DNA of 30,390 nt from a virus. Lineage: Duplodnaviria > Caudoviricetes. The stretch is taken from positions 1 to 30,390 of IMG/VR virus record IMGVR_UViG_3300049023_000048; one strand, given 5' to 3'. Position 1 is the first letter of the stretch. Every line of letters starts with the position of its first letter. The position numbers and the translations under genes are program-made. This document shows positions 7,443 through 17,566 of this stretch, piece by piece. The notes beneath the pieces were generated by a model, which was not told where the DNA came from, searched no databases, and was given only the letters and a program-made list of their open reading frames with translations.

Positions 7443-7711
7443 AAGTCACCCTAATCCCCGAGCGCGCTTACACCGTCAAGACGAACGACGGCGAGCTGAA
7501 GAACATGCGCGTCATCAGTGAATGGGAAGGCTTCACGAAGCTGCAGGCCAAAGAAGGGGACGTGATGATCGTCGAGTCCCCGGCCGACGGCTTCAGCTCG
7601 GCCTTTAGACGCCTGTTCGAGAACGAGCACGGCGAAGTGGTCTCAGTCGTCAAGGCGTCGCCATCGCTGATCGCTGTGCTGGTGCCCAAGCGAGAGGAAT
7701 CGCAGGCATGA
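7439..7711 (+). CDS. Hypothetical protein
   Basis: MKVTLIPERAY...; ATGA overlaps, GC3-rich codons. Confidence 0.65.
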   Translation: MKVTLIPERAYTVKTNDGELKNMRVISEWEGFTKLQAKEGDVMIVESPADGFSSAFRRLFENEHGEVVSVVKASPSLIAVLVPKREESQA

Positions 7712-8544
7712 ACGCGATTGCGCCGCCGCTCGGCCTGATCCTCGGCATGCCGCCTGAGGTCTATCACAGCACCCTTGCGATGAGCGCGGGGGGCCTGAAG
7801 CGCATGCGCCAGAGCCCGGCGCACTTCTACGGCATGCAGTTGGACCCAGATCGGCCGGCGCCGAGCGAGCCCACTCCTGCCCTCAAAAACGGCGCCCTCG
7901 TGCATTGCTGCGTGTTCGAGCCCGACCAGGTTGCGCTGCGCTACGTGGTCAAGCCGGCCGGCCTCGACTTGCGCACGAAAGAAGGCAAGGCTTGGCGCGA
8001 AGCGCAGACGCTTGAGATCGTCGACGCCGAAGCGATGGCCCTAGCCGCCGGCCAAGCGCGTGCCATGCGCAGCCTCCCTGAGGTGGCTGCTCTGCTGAGC
8101 GACGGCGTGGGCGAGGCGTCGGCATTTTGGATCGACGAAAAGACTGGCGAGCTGTGCAAGTGTCGGCCGGACTGGACGTCGCCGGTTGGTGACGGCGTCA
8201 TCCTGGTCGATGGCAAAACCACCATCGACGCGAGCCTTGCTGGCTTCTCGCGCGCCATCTGGAATTTCGACTATCACCTGCAGGCGGCTTGGTATTCGGA
8301 CGGCTACGAGGCTGCGACAGGCAAGCACGTGCACGGATTCGTGTTCGCAGCCGCCGAGTCGTCATGGCCTCACGTTGCTGCGGCATACATGCTCGATGAC
8401 CAGGTGCTCGATCGGGCGCGCGCTGAGAACAGGCGCCTGCTCGATCTCTACGCCGAGTGCAGACGCACCAACCACTGGCCCGGCTATCAGACCGGCATCC
8501 AGCCGATAACCCTGCCCTCGTGGGCCATGAAGGAGATCGCTTGA
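7708..8544 (+). CDS. RecE/exonuclease VIII-like PD-(D/E)XK nuclease (DUF3799-like)
   Basis: YH...SPAHF, G.LVHCCVFEP, CKCRPDW, VDGKTT, YHLQAAWYSDG. Confidence 0.9.
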   Translation: MNAIAPPLGLILGMPPEVYHSTLAMSAGGLKRMRQSPAHFYGMQLDPDRPAPSEPTPALKNGALVHCCVFEPDQVALRYVVKPAGLDLRTKEGKAWREAQTLEIVDAEAMALAAGQARAMRSLPEVAALLSDGVGEASAFWIDEKTGELCKCRPDWTSPVGDGVILVDGKTTIDASLAGFSRAIWNFDYHLQAAWYSDGYEAATGKHVHGFVFAAAESSWPHVAAAYMLDDQVLDRARAENRRLLDLYAECRRTNHWPGYQTGIQPITLPSWAMKEIA

Positions 8545-9560
8545 ACACCGAAGTTGTCGAGTCACCGTTCGCCGCCCGCACTGCCGTCGCGCCGCACGAC
8601 AGTGCCGGCTCGCGCCAGAACCAGAGCCGCGAGTTGGCCGAGACGCAGACCAAGTATTTGATGGCGGAGCGTTTCCCACGCGATGAGGTAGGCGCAATGG
8701 ATCGCATCCTGAATGCTTTCTCGCGTCGCACGCTCGCCGAGAAGGCCGCCTATCAATTCGCGCGTGGCGGCACCGACATTGCTGGCCCGAGTATCCGCGC
8801 GGCCGAAGCCATCGCCCAGCAGTGGGGCAACATGGACAGTGGCTGGCGTGAGCTGCAGCGCGGGGTCGCTGTCGACGGCGTGCCGTTCTCCGAAGTCGAG
8901 GCCTTCTGCGTCGATCTGCAAAGCCGCAACAGCAAGCGGCTGCAGTTCATCGTGCGGCACTGGCGCGACACGAAGTCTGGCGGCTACAAGCTGAAGGATG
9001 AGCGCGACATCTACGAGCTGTGCGCCAACCAGGCGCAACGCCGACTGCGCGCTTGCATCCTGGCCTCCGTGCCAGGCGATGTGACCGAGGCCGCCATGCA
9101 GCAGGCTGAGGTCACGCTGAAGGCCAACGCCGACACCAGCTCCGAGGCCATGGCGAAAATGATCACGGCATTCGCCGAGTTCGGTGTGACGAAAGAGCAC
9201 ATCGAGAAGCGCATTCAGCGCCGGCTTGACGCGATCACGGCAGCGCAGGTGGTATCGCTCAAGCGGATCTATGCAAGTTTGCGCGACGACATGAGCGCAC
9301 CGTCGGAGTGGTTCGACATCGCGCCCCCCGAGCCCAGCGCGAGCGGCATTGATGCGGTGAAGGCCGCTGCTTCCGCAAAGACGGCGAAGCCGGCATCACC
9401 GAAGAAGGGTGCCTCGCTTGCGCAGTTCAAAGAGCGCATCGACAACGCGCTCGACATCGACGCCGCTCAGCTTGTGCTCGACGAAGCGCGCAGCGTGCTG
9501 GACAGCAACGAGAACGACGCGCTGGGTGAGCACTACCGGACCAAATGGAGCACCACATGA
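8541..9560 (+). CDS. Putative single-strand annealing protein (exonuclease partner)
   Basis: AAGGAG RBS plus TTG start; FPRDE...YQFARGG..IAGPSIRAAEAIAQQWGN; function inferred from position after recE. Confidence 0.6.
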   Translation: MNTEVVESPFAARTAVAPHDSAGSRQNQSRELAETQTKYLMAERFPRDEVGAMDRILNAFSRRTLAEKAAYQFARGGTDIAGPSIRAAEAIAQQWGNMDSGWRELQRGVAVDGVPFSEVEAFCVDLQSRNSKRLQFIVRHWRDTKSGGYKLKDERDIYELCANQAQRRLRACILASVPGDVTEAAMQQAEVTLKANADTSSEAMAKMITAFAEFGVTKEHIEKRIQRRLDAITAAQVVSLKRIYASLRDDMSAPSEWFDIAPPEPSASGIDAVKAAASAKTAKPASPKKGASLAQFKERIDNALDIDAAQLVLDEARSVLDSNENDALGEHYRTKWSTT

Positions 9561-9763
9561 AGGGCCGCATCTACCGGGTCACGGTCGGCGAGAACGACCG
9601 CCTCGTCCGCGCCACGCACCCCGCCACGGCATTGATGCACGTCGCGCGCGACATCGCGAAGGTGCGCGTTGCATCGCAGGATGACCTCGTGGAGTGCTTC
9701 GGCGACGGCATCCAGGTCGAAGACATCAAGGCCGAGCAGATGCAGATCGGGCCGACTGGCTAG
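9557..9763 (+). CDS. Conserved small phage protein
   Basis: RIYRV...RLVRATHPATALMHVA...VASQDDLVE; GGAG RBS. Confidence 0.75.
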   Translation: MKGRIYRVTVGENDRLVRATHPATALMHVARDIAKVRVASQDDLVECFGDGIQVEDIKAEQMQIGPTG

Positions 9764-9769
9764 TTTCCC

Positions 9770-9853
9770 GGGCGCGCCTGGCTGGGTTCTCATCCTCCTC
9801 CCTCCCTCCCTCCTTGCCAGCCAGCGCACCGCAAGGTGCCGCCCTCTTTCTTC
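9770..9853 (+). ncRNA. Candidate structured RNA (three-way junction with CU-rich anti-SD loop), possibly also a terminator
   Basis: GGGCG/CGCCC closing stem, CTGGCTGG/CCAGCCAG stem around ATCCTCCTCCCTCCCTCCCTCCTT, GCACC-GCAA-GGTGC tetraloop hairpin, then TCTTTCTTC. Confidence 0.55.
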
Positions 9854-9873
9854 ACCAACCACCGGAGCAAACG

Positions 9874-10428
9874 ATGTTCGAAATCACCAACCAGACCAGG
9901 GCGCTCCTGGTGTCCGTGACCAACCGCAGTGAGAAGCATGGCGACGAAGAAGTGCCAGCCGTGTCGCTGGGCCTGAAGATCACCGGACCGAACACGCTGC
10001 TCGACCTGTTGAGCAAAGACTTGCGGCCGGCGCTCTACCACGTTCCGCGCAACAAGACCGTCGATGGCGTCGACGAGCTCGCGCCCACGCTGCGCACGAA
10101 GTGCCTAGAACACGTCGCGCTCAGCCTAGGCCCGTTCGAAGGCTGGACGCTCAATGTCGATCACGGCATCGACGAGGAAGACCCAGTCACGTTCGGTTCG
10201 TGCAAGGTCGACAAGTTGCGTGTGGTCCCCGTCGAAGGCGGCAGCGTCGAGCTTTCGATGCGTGTGGGCACCAGCGACATCAGCGCCGAGTCGCTCGGCA
10301 TCATCGGCATGAAGATCAGCCAACAGATCAGCGTCACGCTGCTGGCGCCGAAGGTCGCGCCGGACAAGAAGCCGGTCGACGGCAAGCCGAGCCTCACGCC
10401 TACCGAGGCTTTCGCCGGGACGCACTGA
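9874..10428 (+). CDS. Hypothetical phage protein
   Basis: GGAG RBS; MFEITNQ...RSEKHGDEEVPAVSL...EGGSVELSMRV. Confidence 0.75.
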   Translation: MFEITNQTRALLVSVTNRSEKHGDEEVPAVSLGLKITGPNTLLDLLSKDLRPALYHVPRNKTVDGVDELAPTLRTKCLEHVALSLGPFEGWTLNVDHGIDEEDPVTFGSCKVDKLRVVPVEGGSVELSMRVGTSDISAESLGIIGMKISQQISVTLLAPKVAPDKKPVDGKPSLTPTEAFAGTH

Positions 10429-10431
10429 ACA

Positions 10432-10845
10432 ATGACCCCCGATACAGAAGCAGGGCTTCCTGAGCTGCCTCCACTCGAAGGCTTTGTGAAAAACGACGGC
10501 CGTACCAGTGATCGGGTGTGGATCAGGATCGAGCAGGTTCAGGAATACGCAAAGCAATACGCCCTCACCGCCCTATCCCAAGAGCGAGCAGATGCGCAGA
10601 GGTGGAGCGCAATGGTTTACGCGCCGCTGGATGGTAGCGAAGTCGAGTTGATGATTCGCCATCGCAACTACTGGTTGTGGCTCAAGAGCGAAAAGAAGAT
10701 CAAGGGCGAGTCATGGGAACAGGTCGTGCGCGGCCAATGGCTTGACCACAACGGCGGCGGATGGTCTTGGCACGGGATGGCCGGCACACCGATCGGCTGG
10801 CGCGCAATTGACATAGCACGTTCTCAGGAGGGCACAAATGGCTGA
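10432..10845 (+). CDS. Hypothetical protein with DUF551-like C-terminal half
   Basis: W....APLDGSEV...PIGWR pattern. Confidence 0.6.
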   Translation: MTPDTEAGLPELPPLEGFVKNDGRTSDRVWIRIEQVQEYAKQYALTALSQERADAQRWSAMVYAPLDGSEVELMIRHRNYWLWLKSEKKIKGESWEQVVRGQWLDHNGGGWSWHGMAGTPIGWRAIDIARSQEGTNG

Positions 10846-11284
10846 CCAGATGCGCGAGCTGAAGCCGTGTCCGTTTTGCGGCTCAGCATCACTGACCTAC
10901 GAGTACATCGAACGCATCGGGTGCTTGTGTTGTGGTGCAACCGTCATATTCGATGACAGGCAAGGCCGCGGCGCAATTGCGCTTTGGAACGCTAGGGCTG
11001 CTCTGGCCGCTATCCCTGAAGTCTCCGCAGTGCAGGCAGCCGCTGAGCCTGTGGCGACCGTGAAGATTACTGACGCTGGCTATGCGCAGTTGTGGGTGCA
11101 CGGCATCTGCATCAAGAGTCTTTACGGAGAGGTTGGGCGCGATGCAATGGACACATTGGCTGCTCGCTTGAACCATGCCACCGCACAGCCAGTGCAGGCA
11201 GCAGCCTTAGATTCTGCGATGGGTCATCAGACCGAGCGCGATGGAGAAGCGGTGCAGCGGCCACTTCGGGGGATCGAGCGTTGA
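10838..11284 (+). CDS. Lar-like restriction alleviation protein with C-terminal extension
   Basis: ELKPCPFCG...CLCCGA...AIALWNAR; GGAGG RBS. Confidence 0.75.
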   Translation: MADQMRELKPCPFCGSASLTYEYIERIGCLCCGATVIFDDRQGRGAIALWNARAALAAIPEVSAVQAAAEPVATVKITDAGYAQLWVHGICIKSLYGEVGRDAMDTLAARLNHATAQPVQAAALDSAMGHQTERDGEAVQRPLRGIER

Positions 11285-12134
11285 GCCGGATCGTGTGTCA
11301 GTTCTCATGCGGAGCGACTTCGGCTGTGGCAACCAAACTCGTGCTCGCCCAGCATCCAGAGGCGGTGATCCTAAACGCCTACCTGAAGAATGAACACGAA
11401 GACAACCGGCGCTTCTTGGCTGACTGCGAACGGTGGTTCGGCAAAGAGATCACCGTCATCAAAGACGAAAAGTACGGCGCTGACGTGATCGAGGTCTTTC
11501 GCAGAGAACGTTTTATCCGCGGGATCAGCGGAGCGTCTTGTACCAAACGCATCAAACGCGGCTTGCTGGATAAGTGGAAGCGCCCAGATGACGTGATGGT
11601 CCTTGGATTCACCGCCGAGGAACAAGACCGAGCCGACGACTTCACCGAGGCGTGGCCGGATCGGAAAGTATTGTTCCCTCTCATTGAGCGAGGGCTGACG
11701 AAGAACGACTGCAAAGCCATGATCGAGCGTTCCGGCATCGTCTTGCCGCTGATGTACCGCATGGGCTACCAGAATGCGAACTGCATCGCTTGTGTCAAGG
11801 GTGGCATGGGCTACTTCAGATCCATTCGCCACGACTTCCCAGAGCAGTTCTATGCACTCGCTAAGGTCGAATCAGAGATTGGCCCGAGCGCCTACATTCT
11901 TCGACACCAGTCCGGCCCCAACAAGGGAGAGCGCTTTTCGCTTTACGACTTGCCGGCAGGGCCAATCGACCGCAAAGAGCACCTTCCTGACTGCGGACTG
12001 TTTTGCGAAACGGCCGAGCGTGAGTACAGCGCCTAAGCCAATCGAAGAACCTCGGGTCTCTAGCCGAAGCGCCTGAGCCAAATGACCAGAATTCCAGTTC
12101 TGCCACACCGCCGGATCTGATGAACAAAGAAAGC
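11213..12134 (+). mobile_element. Putative repeat-bounded gene cassette 1
   Basis: Left end GGTCATCAGACCG...AGCGGTGCAGCGGCC; right ends TAGCCGAAGCGC-N3-AGCCAAATGACCA (12061-12088) and CGGATCTGATGAACA (12112-12126). Confidence 0.45.
11281..12036 (+). CDS. PAPS-reductase-like / adenine nucleotide alpha-hydrolase family phage protein with Cys clusters
   Basis: FSCGATSAVA PP-loop-like motif, EHEDNRRFL, CTKRIK, FPLIE, NANCIACVKGGMGY, CGLFCE; TTG start. Confidence 0.8.
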   Translation: MSRIVCQFSCGATSAVATKLVLAQHPEAVILNAYLKNEHEDNRRFLADCERWFGKEITVIKDEKYGADVIEVFRRERFIRGISGASCTKRIKRGLLDKWKRPDDVMVLGFTAEEQDRADDFTEAWPDRKVLFPLIERGLTKNDCKAMIERSGIVLPLMYRMGYQNANCIACVKGGMGYFRSIRHDFPEQFYALAKVESEIGPSAYILRHQSGPNKGERFSLYDLPAGPIDRKEHLPDCGLFCETAEREYSA

Positions 12135-12139
12135 ACAGC

Positions 12140-13627
12140 ATGACACACCAACCAGAGAACACCCGCGCTCTTGTTGATCGCGTTGCCAGACAGATCGCGC
12201 GCGATGTGTACGGGTTCGGCACGGCGATGACCCTTGCCCGTTATTCGTCTGAGGCAATCGAAGAACAACATCGCAAGATTGCCCAGGCTGCCATCGAAGC
12301 CATCGCGGAGAACACCCGCGCCACCCCACTGGATGCAGCGCAGGAGATCGACACGGGTGACGTTGTTCTGCACAAGCCATCGGGTGAGCAGTGGCTGGTG
12401 GCGTTCGTGGAGGGCGACATGCTGTGTGCGTGCGGTTGGCCTGAGTCGCTGGCGCCCTTGGCTGATTGCACGCTTGTCACTCGCGCAACACCGGAAGCAC
12501 GGATCAGCCTTCTGCATGAGATGGCTCGTAGTTCCGGCGCCAGGGCTTCCTATGCGAATCGTGCGCTCGCTGCGCCTTCATTCCGTGATGCGTTGGAGTT
12601 TGCCGCCAAGCACTTCAACAGCGATTGGCCGGAGCGCTGCCAATCGATTGTGCTTTGTGCGCGAGCTGCATTGCGGGCTGCACCACCTCAGCCCGACACC
12701 CGCGCCACCCCACTGGATGCAGCGCAGGAGCCTCAAGCCTGGCTGTTTCGCTGCTGGAAGCCTGGGCGGTCATCGGTTTCGGCCAGTGTTGACAAGGACG
12801 ACACGCACTGGTGGCCACGCGACGAATGGAAAAGTGTGATGCGCCTCCCGTTGTCGATTTGTGGGCCGGCTGAAGTGCTCCACGGCGAAGCTCGTGAGTG
12901 GCACGATCTCGCACCACCCCAGCCCGACACCCGCGCCACCCCAGGGGTGCAGGCGGAAGAAGTGAAGCGGCTGGCTGACGTAGCTGCGTCGGCGGAAAAA
13001 GCTCACATCGAATGCTTACGCAGTGCCGGTGATGGTTACGGCAGACAAATGGAACTTGCCGCCTTGGCAGAAACATCGGCAACTGCACGCCAACGGTTTC
13101 ACGCCGCCATCGACGCCCTTGCATCCGAGGCAGGTAAAGCGCCAGCCCCATGGGTGCAGGCCGATTTCGCGCAATCTATGCTTGAGCATGCGGAGACCTA
13201 CTCTGCCGGGCGACAGGACGTCATCAATCGCTTGCGCTACGACGTGCTGCACGAATTCGCCAGCAAACACGGCGTGAGCTACAGCGATTTGCGCGCTGCA
13301 GTTAGAGCCTCCCTTGAGCTGCCAGATGCATCAGAGCCAGGGAAGAAGATTGCTGCTCTGCGAGACGATGTCGGTTCACGCAAGACAGGAGAGGCAGGTA
13401 AAGCGCCAGCCGAGCCTGTGGCGTGGATAGGTCAGTACGAATGGTCGGTGCTCACGGAGAAGAAACAGGGGGCGATGGTTTACCCCGACCAGACCATGCC
13501 AGAGCCGCACGCTCGCCCGCTCTACGTCGCACCCAATGCAGCCAAGGGGCCTGCCCCTTCTCTTGTTCATTCGGCAGAGGCTTCGCTTGGAGCGGTGCAG
13601 CGGCCTGAGCGGGAGACCGAGCGATGA
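12140..13627 (+). CDS. Mosaic multi-module phage protein with repeated linkers
   Basis: 495 aa ORF with repeated TRATPLDAAQE, PPQPDTRATP, EAGKAPA and AEPVAW linkers. Confidence 0.7.
   Translation: MTHQPENTRALVDRVARQIARDVYGFGTAMTLARYSSEAIEEQHRKIAQAAIEAIAENTRATPLDAAQEIDTGDVVLHKPSGEQWLVAFVEGDMLCACGWPESLAPLADCTLVTRATPEARISLLHEMARSSGARASYANRALAAPSFRDALEFAAKHFNSDWPERCQSIVLCARAALRAAPPQPDTRATPLDAAQEPQAWLFRCWKPGRSSVSASVDKDDTHWWPRDEWKSVMRLPLSICGPAEVLHGEAREWHDLAPPQPDTRATPGVQAEEVKRLADVAASAEKAHIECLRSAGDGYGRQMELAALAETSATARQRFHAAIDALASEAGKAPAPWVQADFAQSMLEHAETYSAGRQDVINRLRYDVLHEFASKHGVSYSDLRAAVRASLELPDASEPGKKIAALRDDVGSRKTGEAGKAPAEPVAWIGQYEWSVLTEKKQGAMVYPDQTMPEPHARPLYVAPNAAKGPAPSLVHSAEASLGAVQRPERETER
12312..12943 (+). 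repeat. Direct repeats, linker family 1
   Basis: 35-bp identical 12312-12346 / 12696-12730; 33-bp with one mismatch 12680-12712 / 12911-12943. Confidence 0.9.
13127..13411 (+). repeat. Direct repeats, linker family 2
   Basis: GAGGCAGGTAAAGCGCCAGCC at 13127-13147 and 13391-13411. Confidence 0.9.
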
Positions 13628-13871
13628 AACCAGCGTTATTTGCAAGCCTCGTGGCGCACATTGAAGCCTGGGGCAACGAGAACTGTGAAGAGGCCCACTG
13701 GGTCGATGGCTACGTGCACGAGAAGTACGCCGAGCAGATGGCCAGCGCCGCTGCTGCCGTCATGGACGCAATGGAAGGTGTCCAAGAGTTCATGCGCCGC
13801 GAAGGGCACTCTGAATGACTGGGCGCATGCAGCGGTGTAGCCGAAGCGCTCCAGCCAAATGAACAAAAGAA
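13558..13871 (+). mobile_element. Putative repeat-bounded gene cassette 2 with terminal inverted repeats
   Basis: TTCTCTTGTTCATTCGGCAGAGGCTTCG ... CGAAGCGCTCCAGCCAAATGAACAAAAGAA. Confidence 0.5.
13624..13818 (+). CDS. 64 aa hypothetical protein (cassette 2 cargo)
   Basis: GGAG RBS within the conserved left end; ATGA overlap. Confidence 0.7.
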   Translation: MKPALFASLVAHIEAWGNENCEEAHWVDGYVHEKYAEQMASAAAAVMDAMEGVQEFMRREGHSE

Positions 13872-13915
13872 TCCCATGAATCTCACTCAACAGACAGGGG
13901 AGCCCAAGGCCTGAC

Positions 13916-14152
13916 ATGAGCGAAGCCCTGCACCTCACCCGCGAACAGCTCGAGCAGCTGACGGGAACAGTGCAGCCCAAGCGCATGTGCGATTGGCTGG
14001 ATGCACGGCACTGGGTGTTCGAGCTTCCGGCACGCCGCGGCGACATCCCGAAGGTGGCCCGGGCGTACCATGACGCGCGCATGAGCGGCCAGCCCATCAC
14101 CGGCACCACACGCAGGCGCGCGAAAACCGAGTGGATGACGCAGCCCGCATGA
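13916..14152 (+). CDS. xis: Excisionase-like DUF4224 protein
   Basis: LTREQLEQLTG...WL...PKV.RAY; immediately upstream of and coupled to the integrase. Confidence 0.75.
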   Translation: MSEALHLTREQLEQLTGTVQPKRMCDWLDARHWVFELPARRGDIPKVARAYHDARMSGQPITGTTRRRAKTEWMTQPA

Positions 14153-15282
14153 TCCGCCCACGATCAAAGCCAGACGGCCTGCCGCCACGCGTCTACGAGC
14201 GCTTCGGCAAGCGCACCTACTCCATCGGCCACAAGGCCGACAGCGGCGCCTGGAGCTTTCGCCTCAGCTGCCCATTGGGTCAGCGCGCCAAGATCGCCGA
14301 ACTGCGCCTGCAGGCCGTGCGCAAGGCCGCCGAGATCGATTCGGGCGCGCCAGCTGATGGTTCGTTCGCAGCGCTGGCCAAGGCCTGGCTCAAGTGGCAG
14401 CGCGAGCTACCCGCAGGCACCCCAGGCAAGCGCGCCGACAGCACGCTGAAGGAGAACGAGCGGGAGATCGCCGCCCTCAATCGCAGCTTCGACGACATGC
14501 AGGTCGCCGAGATGGAGAAGGGCGACGCCTACGACCACCTCGACGCCTGCCTCATCGCCAAAGACAAGAAGGGCAACCCGCGGCCGCGGCCCGAGAAGGG
14601 CAACAAGGAAATCGCGCTCGCGCACGTGATGCTCGAGTGGGCCGTGCGCCGGCGCTGGATCAAGAGCAACCCCTTCGACGGCGTCGAGAAGCTCGTCACC
14701 GAGAAGGCGCAGCGCGCCGTCACGGCGCAGGAGCTGTGCCTCGCGGTCGAGGTCGGGCGCAAGCTCGGCGGCCCGCAGCACATCGTCGCGCTCGCGTGCA
14801 AGACCGCGTGGCTGTGCGTGCGCCGCTCAGTCGAGGTGCGCGCCATGACCCGCGACCAGATCGACGCCGAGCGCGGCATCTTCTGGAAGGCAGCCAAGCG
14901 TCAGGCAGGCCAGGCCGAAAAGGTCGGCCTCATCGAGTGGAGCCCCGAGCTGCGCGCCACCATCGACGAAGCGCTGGCGATCAAGCGCAACAAGCTCGCC
15001 GGTGCGTGGTACGTCTTCGGCAACCTGAGCGGCCAGAAGTACACCAAGGGCGGCTGGAAGAAGACCCTCTCGGTGCTGATGCACGCCTGCGTCGAAGAGG
15101 CTGCCAAGCGCAAGCTCGCCTTCGCGTCCTTCTCGCTGCAAGACTGCCGACCGATGGGCGTCAGCGACAAACTCGCGCGCGGCGATCGAGATGTGCAGGA
15201 CGCAACCCTGCACAGCAGCGAGCGAATGATTCGTCAGGTGTATGACCGCAGGCGCGTGCGAGTTGCGAAGCCTGCGGGTTGA
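14149..15282 (+). CDS. int: Tyrosine integrase
   Basis: LPPRVY arm-binding N-terminus, NKEIAL...NPFDGV, catalytic R (VRRSVEV), QDCR, LH, VYDR; adjacent to att site. Confidence 0.92.
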   Translation: MIRPRSKPDGLPPRVYERFGKRTYSIGHKADSGAWSFRLSCPLGQRAKIAELRLQAVRKAAEIDSGAPADGSFAALAKAWLKWQRELPAGTPGKRADSTLKENEREIAALNRSFDDMQVAEMEKGDAYDHLDACLIAKDKKGNPRPRPEKGNKEIALAHVMLEWAVRRRWIKSNPFDGVEKLVTEKAQRAVTAQELCLAVEVGRKLGGPQHIVALACKTAWLCVRRSVEVRAMTRDQIDAERGIFWKAAKRQAGQAEKVGLIEWSPELRATIDEALAIKRNKLAGAWYVFGNLSGQKYTKGGWKKTLSVLMHACVEEAAKRKLAFASFSLQDCRPMGVSDKLARGDRDVQDATLHSSERMIRQVYDRRRVRVAKPAG

Positions 15283-15296
15283 TGAATACCGGCCGC

Positions 15297-15535
15297 ATAT
15301 TCCAAAAACTATGCGTGATATTCCAAAGTTTGCTCTACGTGAGCGAGCGCTATCGAGAGGACGCGCAATGACACTTGATGTGTTGGCGGAGTGGACGGGA
15401 CTCGAACCCGCGACCCCCGGCGTGACAGGCCGGTTGGCGGCGCCAGCATTGGCGCGGGTTTCAGCCCCGATTCATATTCCAAAGATCGACGTTTTCCAGA
15501 GATTCTCACCTGGGAAGCGCAACGCTGATTCCAAA
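15297..15535 (+). repeat. Integrase arm-type sites of attP
   Basis: ATATTCCAAA at 15297, 15318 and 15474; degenerate TTTTCCAGA at 15492 and GATTCCAAA at 15527; they flank the core on both sides. Confidence 0.8.
15384..15434 (-). other. attP: attP core: 3' 51 nt of tRNA-Asp(GTC)
   Basis: Minus strand ACCGGCCTGTCACGCCGGGGGTCGCGGGTTCGAGTCCCGTCCACTCCGCCA contains anticodon arm, T arm and CCA; 5' half of the tRNA is absent. Confidence 0.9.
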
Positions 15536-15677
15536 AATCGCCGGCGCATTCGGCGCGTCGCTTTGCTGCTCGCGATGGGCACTGCAGCCCTCACCGCCTG
15601 CACCTCTCCCGCCGAACTGGACCGGTGCTTCCACCATCCAGAGCTGCAGTCGACGGCTTGCAAGGTGTAGGCGAGTC

Positions 15678-16994
15678 GTGCGCTTCGGCAGCGTGTGCTC
15701 CGGCATCGAGGCCGCCAGCGTGGCGTGGCGCCCGCTCGGTTGGCGCGCGCAGTTCTTCAGCGAGATCGACGCCTTTCCGTGCGCCGTGCTGAAGCACCAC
15801 TACCCCGACGTGCCGAACCGCGGCGACATGACGCGCTTCAAGGACTGGCCCGATGCAACTCTCGATCTTCTCTGCGGAGGAACACCCTGCCAGTCGTACA
15901 GCAACGCCGGATTGCGCGCGGGGCTGGATGACCCGCGTGGCCAGCTCATGCTCACCTTTGGTGCCATTGCTGCAAGGTATCGGCCCCGCTGGCTGGTTTG
16001 GGAGAACGTCCCCGGCGTACTGTCGAGCAATGGAGGACGGGACTTTGGTGCCTTCCTCGGGCTCCTGGCCTTCATCGGGTATGGGTTCGCCTACCGAGTT
16101 CTTGACGCTCAATTTGTGCGAGTGGACGGCTACGCTCGTGCCGTCCCCCAGCGACGGCAGCGTGTGTTCGTTGTCGGATGTCTTGGAGACTGGCGAAGTG
16201 CCGCAGCGGTACTTCTTGAGCGCGAGAGCCTGCGCGGGGATCCTGCGCCGCGCCGAAGCGCGGGGGCGCGCGTTGCCGCCACACTTACTCGCGGCGCTGA
16301 AAGCGGTGGCCGAGGCGGGTACGCCGGACGGCGACAGGAAGATGACACCAACATCGTCGCGGGCGCAATCCAGTGCACCGGACCCGGCGCAGGATGGCGC
16401 ATCGGCGCGGACGAAGCGGCGGCGAACCAACTCGTCGCCTACGGCGGCAACAACACCAGCGGCTCCCGCGACGTAGCCTCGGCCCTCTCGGCCCACGGCG
16501 GCACCGGCCGCCACGACTTCGAAACCGAGACGTTCATCGCGTTCGACACCACGCAGATCACCAGCCGCGAGAACCGCAGCAACCCACAGCCCGGCGATCC
16601 GTGCCACCCTGTTGCCGCGCACGCGCACGCGCCTGCGATCGCGTTCAACGCGCGGCAAGACCCGATCAACGGCCCGATCAACGGCCCGATCGACACCGAT
16701 CCCAGCGGTGCAGCGGTGCTGCACCAAGCGCGCGTGCGCAGATTGATGCCAATCGAGTGCGAGCGCCTGCAGGGCTTCCCCGATCACTACACCGCCATCA
16801 CCTACCGCGGCAAGCCCGCCAAGGACGGCCCTCGCTACAAGGCCATCGGCAATAGCTGGGCGGTGAACTGCGCGCGCTGGGTGGGGCAGCGCATCGCAAT
16901 GGTCGATGGCGCTATCCTGCCCCAGTGGACGACCCCCGCACCACCTGGCTCCTTGCCTTCACCTACGCCCTGCGAGCGCTTCGGCCGCACCTGA
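15678..16994 (+). CDS. dcm: C5-cytosine DNA methyltransferase (orphan)
   Basis: SVCSGIEA, GGTPCQS, WENVPG, PQRRQRVF, RRLMPIECERLQGFP, RYKAIGNS. Confidence 0.95.
   Translation: MRFGSVCSGIEAASVAWRPLGWRAQFFSEIDAFPCAVLKHHYPDVPNRGDMTRFKDWPDATLDLLCGGTPCQSYSNAGLRAGLDDPRGQLMLTFGAIAARYRPRWLVWENVPGVLSSNGGRDFGAFLGLLAFIGYGFAYRVLDAQFVRVDGYARAVPQRRQRVFVVGCLGDWRSAAAVLLERESLRGDPAPRRSAGARVAATLTRGAESGGRGGYAGRRQEDDTNIVAGAIQCTGPGAGWRIGADEAAANQLVAYGGNNTSGSRDVASALSAHGGTGRHDFETETFIAFDTTQITSRENRSNPQPGDPCHPVAAHAHAPAIAFNARQDPINGPINGPIDTDPSGAAVLHQARVRRLMPIECERLQGFPDHYTAITYRGKPAKDGPRYKAIGNSWAVNCARWVGQRIAMVDGAILPQWTTPAPPGSLPSPTPCERFGRT
15853..16476 (+). CDS. Overprinted ORF in +1 frame of dcm, putative MTase beta subunit
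   Basis: AAGGA RBS 8 nt before ATG; SLSDVLETGEVPQRYFLSARACAGILRRAEARG resembles beta polypeptides of split MTases. Confidence 0.65.
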   Translation: MQLSIFSAEEHPASRTATPDCARGWMTRVASSCSPLVPLLQGIGPAGWFGRTSPAYCRAMEDGTLVPSSGSWPSSGMGSPTEFLTLNLCEWTATLVPSPSDGSVCSLSDVLETGEVPQRYFLSARACAGILRRAEARGRALPPHLLAALKAVAEAGTPDGDRKMTPTSSRAQSSAPDPAQDGASARTKRRRTNSSPTAATTPAAPAT

Positions 16995-17487: not shown

Positions 17488-17566
17488 CCCAGCGGCCCCC
17501 GTAACGGTGCAGCGGAGCGGCATGTTTTCACGGCCGCGCACCTGAGTCGAGGTCTACCATGCAGGC

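Follow-up and report, generated by a model that had tools for sequence, protein, structure and literature searches.

A junction element facing both ways at accessory-gene boundaries in three phages

Two accessory genes of one phage, a PAPS-reductase-like gene and a gene for 64 amino acids (aa), have similar end sequences, and the locus thereby raises the question of whether each gene is a mobile cassette or whether the ends serve another purpose. The window analysed here is the whole of IMG/VR virus record IMGVR_UViG_3300049023_000048, 30,390 nucleotides long and a single phage contig. The two genes belong to a row of accessory genes on the same strand, with exonuclease VIII-like and recT-like genes upstream and xis-int downstream. 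A preliminary description, made from the sequence alone, took the two genes for the cargo of a cassette system with shared, mutually inverted ends. The motifs on which it was built are there. The left ends have the same spacing, with TCAT-N20-AGCGGTGCAGCGGCC at 11224 and 13567 and AGCGGTGCAGCGGCC-N12-CGAGCG-start at 11248 and 13591. The right motif is present at 12061 and 13838 (two matches at up to three mismatches, against none in 100 shuffles), and AVQRP....ER is the C-terminus of both upstream open reading frames (ORFs). The inner repeat AGCGGTG(C/T)AGC is found at 13591 and 13831, and a fourth exact copy of it lies at 16704, within a methylase-like ORF. Judged by sequence, the left and right ends do not represent separate motifs but a single element of about 55 bases, here called E, which stands forward 3' of genes and inverted in the left ends. 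The ends and their cargo are:

11212..11280, minus strand: L1, inverted E (11212-11267) with a 3' part that is the ribosome site of the PAPS gene
11281..12036, plus strand: PAPS-reductase-like gene, cargo 1 (phrog_424, E-value 2e-46; 14 related loci)
12045..12096, plus strand: R1, forward E without the outer GCAGCGGT box
12097..12134, plus strand: R1', a partial second forward copy ahead of the next start (untrained match of 8.4 bits)
13552..13623, minus strand: L2, inverted E (13552-13610) with a 3' part that is the ribosome site of the 64-aa gene
13624..13818, plus strand: 64-aa gene, cargo 2, family unassigned by searches
13819..13876, plus strand: R2, forward E, followed by ATGA-linked mini-ORFs as far as xis

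Forward E consists of an outer box GCAGCGGT, about 10 variable bases, an inner box CGCTCGGTCAG or a variant of it, ATGA, a purine-rich stretch and the next start. We count 14 copies, five in the window, six in a second phage (G306) and three in a third (G002). The training alignment A2 took in 12 of them, the other two being untrained, and in it inner-box variants of the GGTAGG, GGTC and GCCAA types each occur in both orientations. By reading of the sequences, all 14 copies stand at a gene junction, and the neighbouring genes differ. Whichever genes flank it, E provides them with tail codons, a stop, a ribosome site or a start, and one copy overlaps the stop of a NinB-like gene. Three inverted copies in G306 begin right after an ATG and code for M-x-x-x-T-E-R; L1 shares this register through its in-frame ATG at 11219 (MGHQTER). 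R1 and R2 carry TAGCCGAAGCG 10 bases ahead of an ATG. In each right end one frame stays open up to a stop just ahead of the next gene; for R2 this frame is that of the 64-aa gene, continued past its stop. Chains of mini-ORFs (6 to 15 codons, overlapping by ATGA) bridge the distance between the cargo genes and the next real start at 13815-13918 and 12082-12142. The closest pairs of ends within the window agree at 81-84% over 31-37 bases, and elsewhere in the window no copy of E exceeds 7.2 bits. The 3.7-kb region contains five families of short direct repeats, E among them.

Matches between records of different phages indicate that E is a real element shared across phages. A scan of virus records with the left-end pattern returned one record, L001 (whole record G306), which is a different phage with no blastn match to the window at an E-value of 1e-3. 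Its accessory region holds three R2-like forward copies at gene ends and three inverted copies after start codons, and the forward copies align with scores of 44, 42 and 33, where shuffles reached maxima between 27 and 33. G002 (locus L028) was found through its recT-like gene. It carries a single inverted copy and two forward ones, of which the last stands directly ahead of a xis-like gene, as R2 does in the window. Circularity was avoided by training a profile on one phage and testing it on another. For the profile of the three forward G306 copies, the top three window matches are R2 (15.8 bits, E-value 4e-4), inverted L1 (9.4 bits) and, in third rank, R1' (6.6 bits), with the reversed control at no more than 3.6 bits. 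The window four-copy profile finds two forward copies of G306 (15.3 and 12.9 bits; control at most 7.4) and one of G002 (12.4 bits; no control match). The G306-only profile misses L2 and R1, which are assigned to the family through their likeness to L1 and R2. Confinement to one genome with constant cargo had been named in advance as the outcome that would speak against a cassette system; E is instead present in two further phages, beside different genes.

Wider scans were made with several patterns. The exact right-end pattern matched no viral contig, and its two metagenome and three genome matches, all in non-phage contexts, were taken as chance. A looser right-end pattern gave one viral match, the contig of L028 itself, which the pattern was designed to include. 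The E model matched 5 of 41 virus records; G419, G004 and G432 gave single partial matches without the inner-box end and were dropped as likely chance. Two matches of the model in 55 large genomes from one bacterial class, of which only 96 candidates per genome were scored, both sit within housekeeping genes, so that about 19 bits can be reached by chance at genome scale. By plain alignment of the window ends with 37 related regions (232 kb), only the L028 forward copy exceeds the shuffle range, and blastn against cultured phages with the region or with single ends gave only two PAPS-gene matches and chance fragments. All samples from this bacterial class were too weak to prove absence: the E pattern matched 9 times in 401 genomes (7 in the control), the integrase had distant matches in 3 of 201 and the recT-like gene was found in 1 of 300.

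What, then, does E do? We give roughly even odds, a probability of about 0.5, to the reading in which E serves as a boundary sequence where RecE/RecT-type proteins swap neighbouring genes between like-facing copies. It is favoured by the cross-phage validation, by the placement of 14 of 14 copies at junctions, by module exchange at neighbouring linkers and by the proximity of recE and recT-like genes, 2-3 kb upstream of the E region. The other genes that this reading involves, with those that bound the locus downstream, are:

7708..8544, plus strand: RecE/exonuclease VIII-like gene, candidate partner of the annealing protein (phrog_412, E-value 1e-78; NF007259 below cut-off)
8550..9560, plus strand: RecT-like single-strand annealing gene (phrog_3657; relatives in phage records annotated RecT or RecE-linked)
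10838..11284, plus strand: Lar-like modular ORF whose 3' tail is L1 (PF14354, phrog_599)
11027..11056, plus strand: VQAAAEPVA linker repeat (D6), a module-swap site (contig break in run X4; P0006)
12140..13627, plus strand: 495-aa modular ORF whose 3' tail is L2, with internal linker repeats DTRATP (three) and EAGKAPA (two)
13916..14152, plus strand: excisionase (phrog_4764, PF13986)
14149..15282, plus strand: phage tyrosine integrase (phrog_1)

E lends a stop, a ribosome site and a start to any neighbour gene, and like-facing copies would offer short homology for RecE/RecT-type annealing, through which neighbouring genes would be exchanged. Swapping at E would be driven by homology and not by the adjacent integrase, and the RecT-like gene at 8550..9560 is the likely source of the swapping enzyme. 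Genes of the recE and recT type are present in the window and in G002, and a NinB-like gene in G306, as candidate sources of an annealing recombinase. RecT-type proteins of other phages recombine short diverged homology with substrates of 67-78% identity, as the excerpt of PMC3945230 reports. The ancestral junction may have been a hairpin, with the forward arm at a gene end, the ribosome site and ATG in the loop and the inverted arm coding for the first residues of the next gene. The complementarity of left and right ends would be inherited from this hairpin, which would have had the layout of the true attC sites found at the same position in relatives, and the present copies would mostly be unpaired half-sites.

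Exchange in close variants can be followed at neighbouring linkers. P0006 has a different N-terminal module joined at the VQAAAEPVA linker to the same C-module and tail, and a contig of run X4 breaks at 11028-11057 next to a second allele, which is probably P0006. In P0007, modules of the 495-aa protein are lost and swapped at the DTRATP and EAGKAPA linkers, and the L2 tail is retained behind a different module; a loose end of run X6 at 13147 codes for the next ten residues of P0007. Modules of the 495-aa ORF recur in 774 representative proteins, and among the 150 of these that were listed one other, P0009, has an L1-like tail. Protein-linker repeats (12312-12961, 13127-13423 and 11027-11056) divide the 495-aa ORF into the modules whose loss or exchange is seen in close variants, and in run X2 a module between two exact 35-base repeats stands at about half the depth of its flanks.

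The nearest known counterparts are the phage boundary (linker) sequences, a standing proposal for mosaic junctions of temperate phages in the excerpt of PMC3029335. Like E, they are short repeats at junctions of unrelated genes, with a stop, a ribosome site and a start, in a recE/recT-linked region. In contrast to the boundary sequences of that excerpt, E faces two ways, has two boxes, is more diverged and has no breakpoint seen inside it. The PeSL of T4-type phages (PMC2839356, in excerpt) is likewise a repeated junction element for which shuffling through recombination between copies is proposed. E differs from the PeSL described there in facing both ways, and circles are absent from the contigs examined. 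No sigma-70 promoter-like site is found in 10300-15600, and the only terminator candidate is one weak stem at 13544-13559, near L2, so that E does not qualify as a PeSL. A search of full-text literature, mostly non-subscription papers without supplements and with the sequence itself not queried, gave no account of a two-way junction element like E.

Several observations weigh against a boundary role. The identity of E between phages is lower than the 67-78% of the substrates in the PMC3945230 excerpt, and copies of different phages agree at only 8 to 23 of about 34 core positions. Within the sets searched, E is seen in only three phage genomes. No swap observed has its breakpoint within E; in close variants, breakpoints were seen at other linkers. 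A plain boundary role needs no two orientations, and an intact forward-plus-inverted hairpin is absent among the 14 copies, which makes the ancestral hairpin a reconstruction.

The preliminary description had gone further and seen each gene as a unit held by matched ends and moved by the adjacent integrase. The mutual inversion of the ends is found in cassette 2 and, at the level of the family, for L1, but the arms of cassette 1 alone pair at chance level. The cassette 2 pairing (13558-13585 with 13842-13871) scores 29, which is equalled by 3 of 658 position-matched control windows, and the cassette 1 pairings score 16 against a control mean of 18.6, so this arm pair alone is not above chance. 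In regions of several kb, chance alone commonly yields inverted repeats scoring 25 to 33. The cassette 2 stem is present in both centroid folds, and the fold energy is ordinary overall (z of -0.76 and 0.01). In the three cases of cargo enclosed by an inverted and a forward copy, the complementarity rank of the enclosing partner is 4th, 2nd and 2nd of 6, never the best. Three forward copies of G306 have no inverted partner before their genes, and the best-scoring inverted repeat of G002 lies away from the homologous position and runs in the opposite direction. Flanks of PAPS-gene relatives are without E-type ends at 14 of 14 loci; the two closest relatives have plain start-stop overlaps at the gene edges, and four nearly identical loci have a direct repeat on each side. 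At L008-L011, a direct repeat of about 29 bases with a small hairpin and a ribosome site stands on both sides of the PAPS-like gene, another boundary family with the same cargo. Between the inverted and forward E of L028 (8892-9160) lie a small reverse-strand gene, an AT-rich divergent region and a repeated 13-base operator-like sequence.

Contigs of 8 of 24 sequencing runs were examined; rare forms drop out of contigs, and the window may itself derive from the deep runs. No RNA data set was among the listed runs, which says nothing about expression. Two runs (depth 18 and 40) have a single contig across L1, the PAPS gene and R1, and three (depth 15 to 31) have one across L2, the 64-aa gene and R2. 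Joints at the E ends, circles and strand changes are absent from the contigs of the 8 runs, in which rare forms would be missed, and the accessory genes all face one way. The chance-level arms of cassette 1, the non-best partners, the unpaired copies, the bare PAPS flanks and the unbroken deep contigs together make a per-gene cassette less credible, and the claim of units held by matched ends is not supported. The same applies to movement by the adjacent integrase, since the three phages share no detected recombinase, deep contigs have no excision or inversion branch and the swaps fall at other repeats. G306, which is 72% complete, has no PF00589 integrase match, and the integrase of G002 is of another kind. 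What survives of the cassette system is a family of ends, mutually inverted between left and right, that lies beside different genes in different phages; the matched-pair units do not. The flanks read share no target duplication, as had been noted, and the element ends are not sharply bounded. Miniature inverted-repeat transposable elements (MITEs), shufflons and pdif modules have inverted sites that flank cargo, with no enzyme inside. E differs from all three in that a matched terminal pair for each gene and a target duplication are lacking and no inverted allele is seen in the contigs examined; the matched terminal inverted repeats by which a MITE or other non-autonomous transposon is recognised appear to be absent.

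True attC sites occupy this position in some related phages. Among 33 recT-linked loci found, 29 were examined (two duplicates and two loci without downstream DNA were left out), and four of the 29 have 3 to 11 attC-like hairpins at the same position, on the strand opposite the genes. Their loops often contain the ribosome site and start of the next gene. The arrays lie between accessory genes 3' of the recT-like gene (L027:2355-4025, L029:10636-16815, L033:9935-15156 and L034:6618-8235); PF00589 has one match in the record of L029 and none in those of L033 and L034. The array leaders share with R1 and R2 the motif CCG(A/G)AGCG, 5 to 13 bases ahead of ATG, with 26 occurrences on the gene strand and a single one on the opposite strand (26.9 kb). 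Downstream of recT, TAGCCGAAGC occurs three times on the gene strand in 182 kb and never on the other strand, and it is absent from 177 kb upstream. Integron attC sites in phages, the clusters of attC sites lacking integron integrases (CALINs) of the PMC9892861 excerpt, are like E in occupying the same locus in relatives, in that each gene runs from one arm into the other, and in their mutually inverted ends. E differs from the attC sites of that excerpt in that it has no paired RYYYAAC/GTTRRRY, no L boxes, no intact hairpin found and no IntI match in the window.

That the ends lack the attC consensus, as first stated, is correct insofar as a crude finder detects no attC hairpin in the accessory region (0 sites in 9560-14150), but TCGAGC-GTTGAGC of L1 does fit GTTRRRY. 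This L1 end has no upstream partner arm. The idea of decayed attC sites was rejected on half-site matrices, where the window ends score at most 6.2 bits, under the attC level of at least 13 bits for all but one training site per matrix. On these scores E is not attC. The window integrase has no NCBIfam match, including none to TIGR02249, the integron integrase model, and by this comparison is not IntI. Past the integrase, the stretch 17499-17523 scores 9 bits on the attC left-arm matrix; it is AGCGGTGCAGC-like and lies directly 3' of the stop of a small ORF.

It is possible, though we consider it unlikely, that the E arms are halves of a folded single-strand site, an analogue of attC served by a trans-acting recombinase, with each module starting in an inverted arm and ending in a forward arm. 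Each inner-box variant does occur in both orientations, the order inverted-cargo-forward is found in the window and in G002 with different cargo, and the cassette 2 stem is kept in both centroid folds. The attC arrays of 4 of 29 related phages also lie here, with loops that hold the ribosome site and start and with the leader motif of R1 and R2. This is set against the lack of any intact hairpin in 14 copies, the cognate ranks of 4th, 2nd and 2nd of 6, the offset G002 repeat, the ordinary fold energy, the deep contigs without a branch at the ends and the failure to detect a common recombinase in the three phages. We are equally doubtful that E is the site of an undescribed phage hairpin-cassette system, in which folded arms would hold the ribosome site and start and would be cut by a recombinase acting in trans.

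A role in mRNA appears to us somewhat less probable still. The arms could hide or expose ribosome sites or form processing stems, and the ATGA-linked mini-ORF chains could hand on ribosomes. Every copy does lie at a translation junction, R1 and R2 lead to mini-ORF chains, and the top-strand RNA fold encloses the 64-aa gene in a loop. However, the cassette 1 arms pair at chance level, unpaired copies are common, and at both core mismatches of cassette 2 the RNA strand has C-A, with G-T only on the opposite strand.

Improbable, in our judgement, is an orientation-free DNA site, either a protein operator or a tiny insertion element, that would be tolerated at junctions because its frames stay open both ways. 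Such a site would fit the pair of conserved boxes with their variable spacer, the occurrence in both orientations and the open frames in each, but the placement of E tracks translation signals (forward ends have ATGA, and three inverted G306 copies start after ATG), no target duplication is found and the window has no other copies above 7.2 bits. One old local duplication with chance complementarity is very improbable, for although inverted repeats at 25-33 do arise by chance in most multi-kb regions and the exact right-end patterns matched only non-phage DNA in two large collections, independent copies in two other phages pass cross-validation and largely refute it.

Beyond these junctions, a tRNA-like attachment core near 15384-15434 adjoins int, and tRNA-like loose ends are found in contigs. 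Past this core, at 15678-16994, cytosine-methylase-like frames closely resemble those of the L036 accessory region. The 64-aa protein has no family match, its relative search returned only itself and its atlas matches are under 0.8. An Rfam scan of the window found nothing that reached the gathering score.

It has long been an open question how temperate phages exchange accessory genes with clean joins at gene boundaries. For this question E offers a defined and testable junction sequence, which is common to otherwise dissimilar phages and lies at a locus occupied by true attC hairpins in relatives. As a boundary sequence alone, E would contribute a two-way variant and could serve as a marker for breakpoint mapping. 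If it is a folded recombination site, phages would have a second cassette chemistry alongside integrons. Should the hairpin-cassette system exist, no fewer than two hairpin-cassette families, attC and E, would operate side by side in temperate phages at one recE/recT-linked accessory locus.

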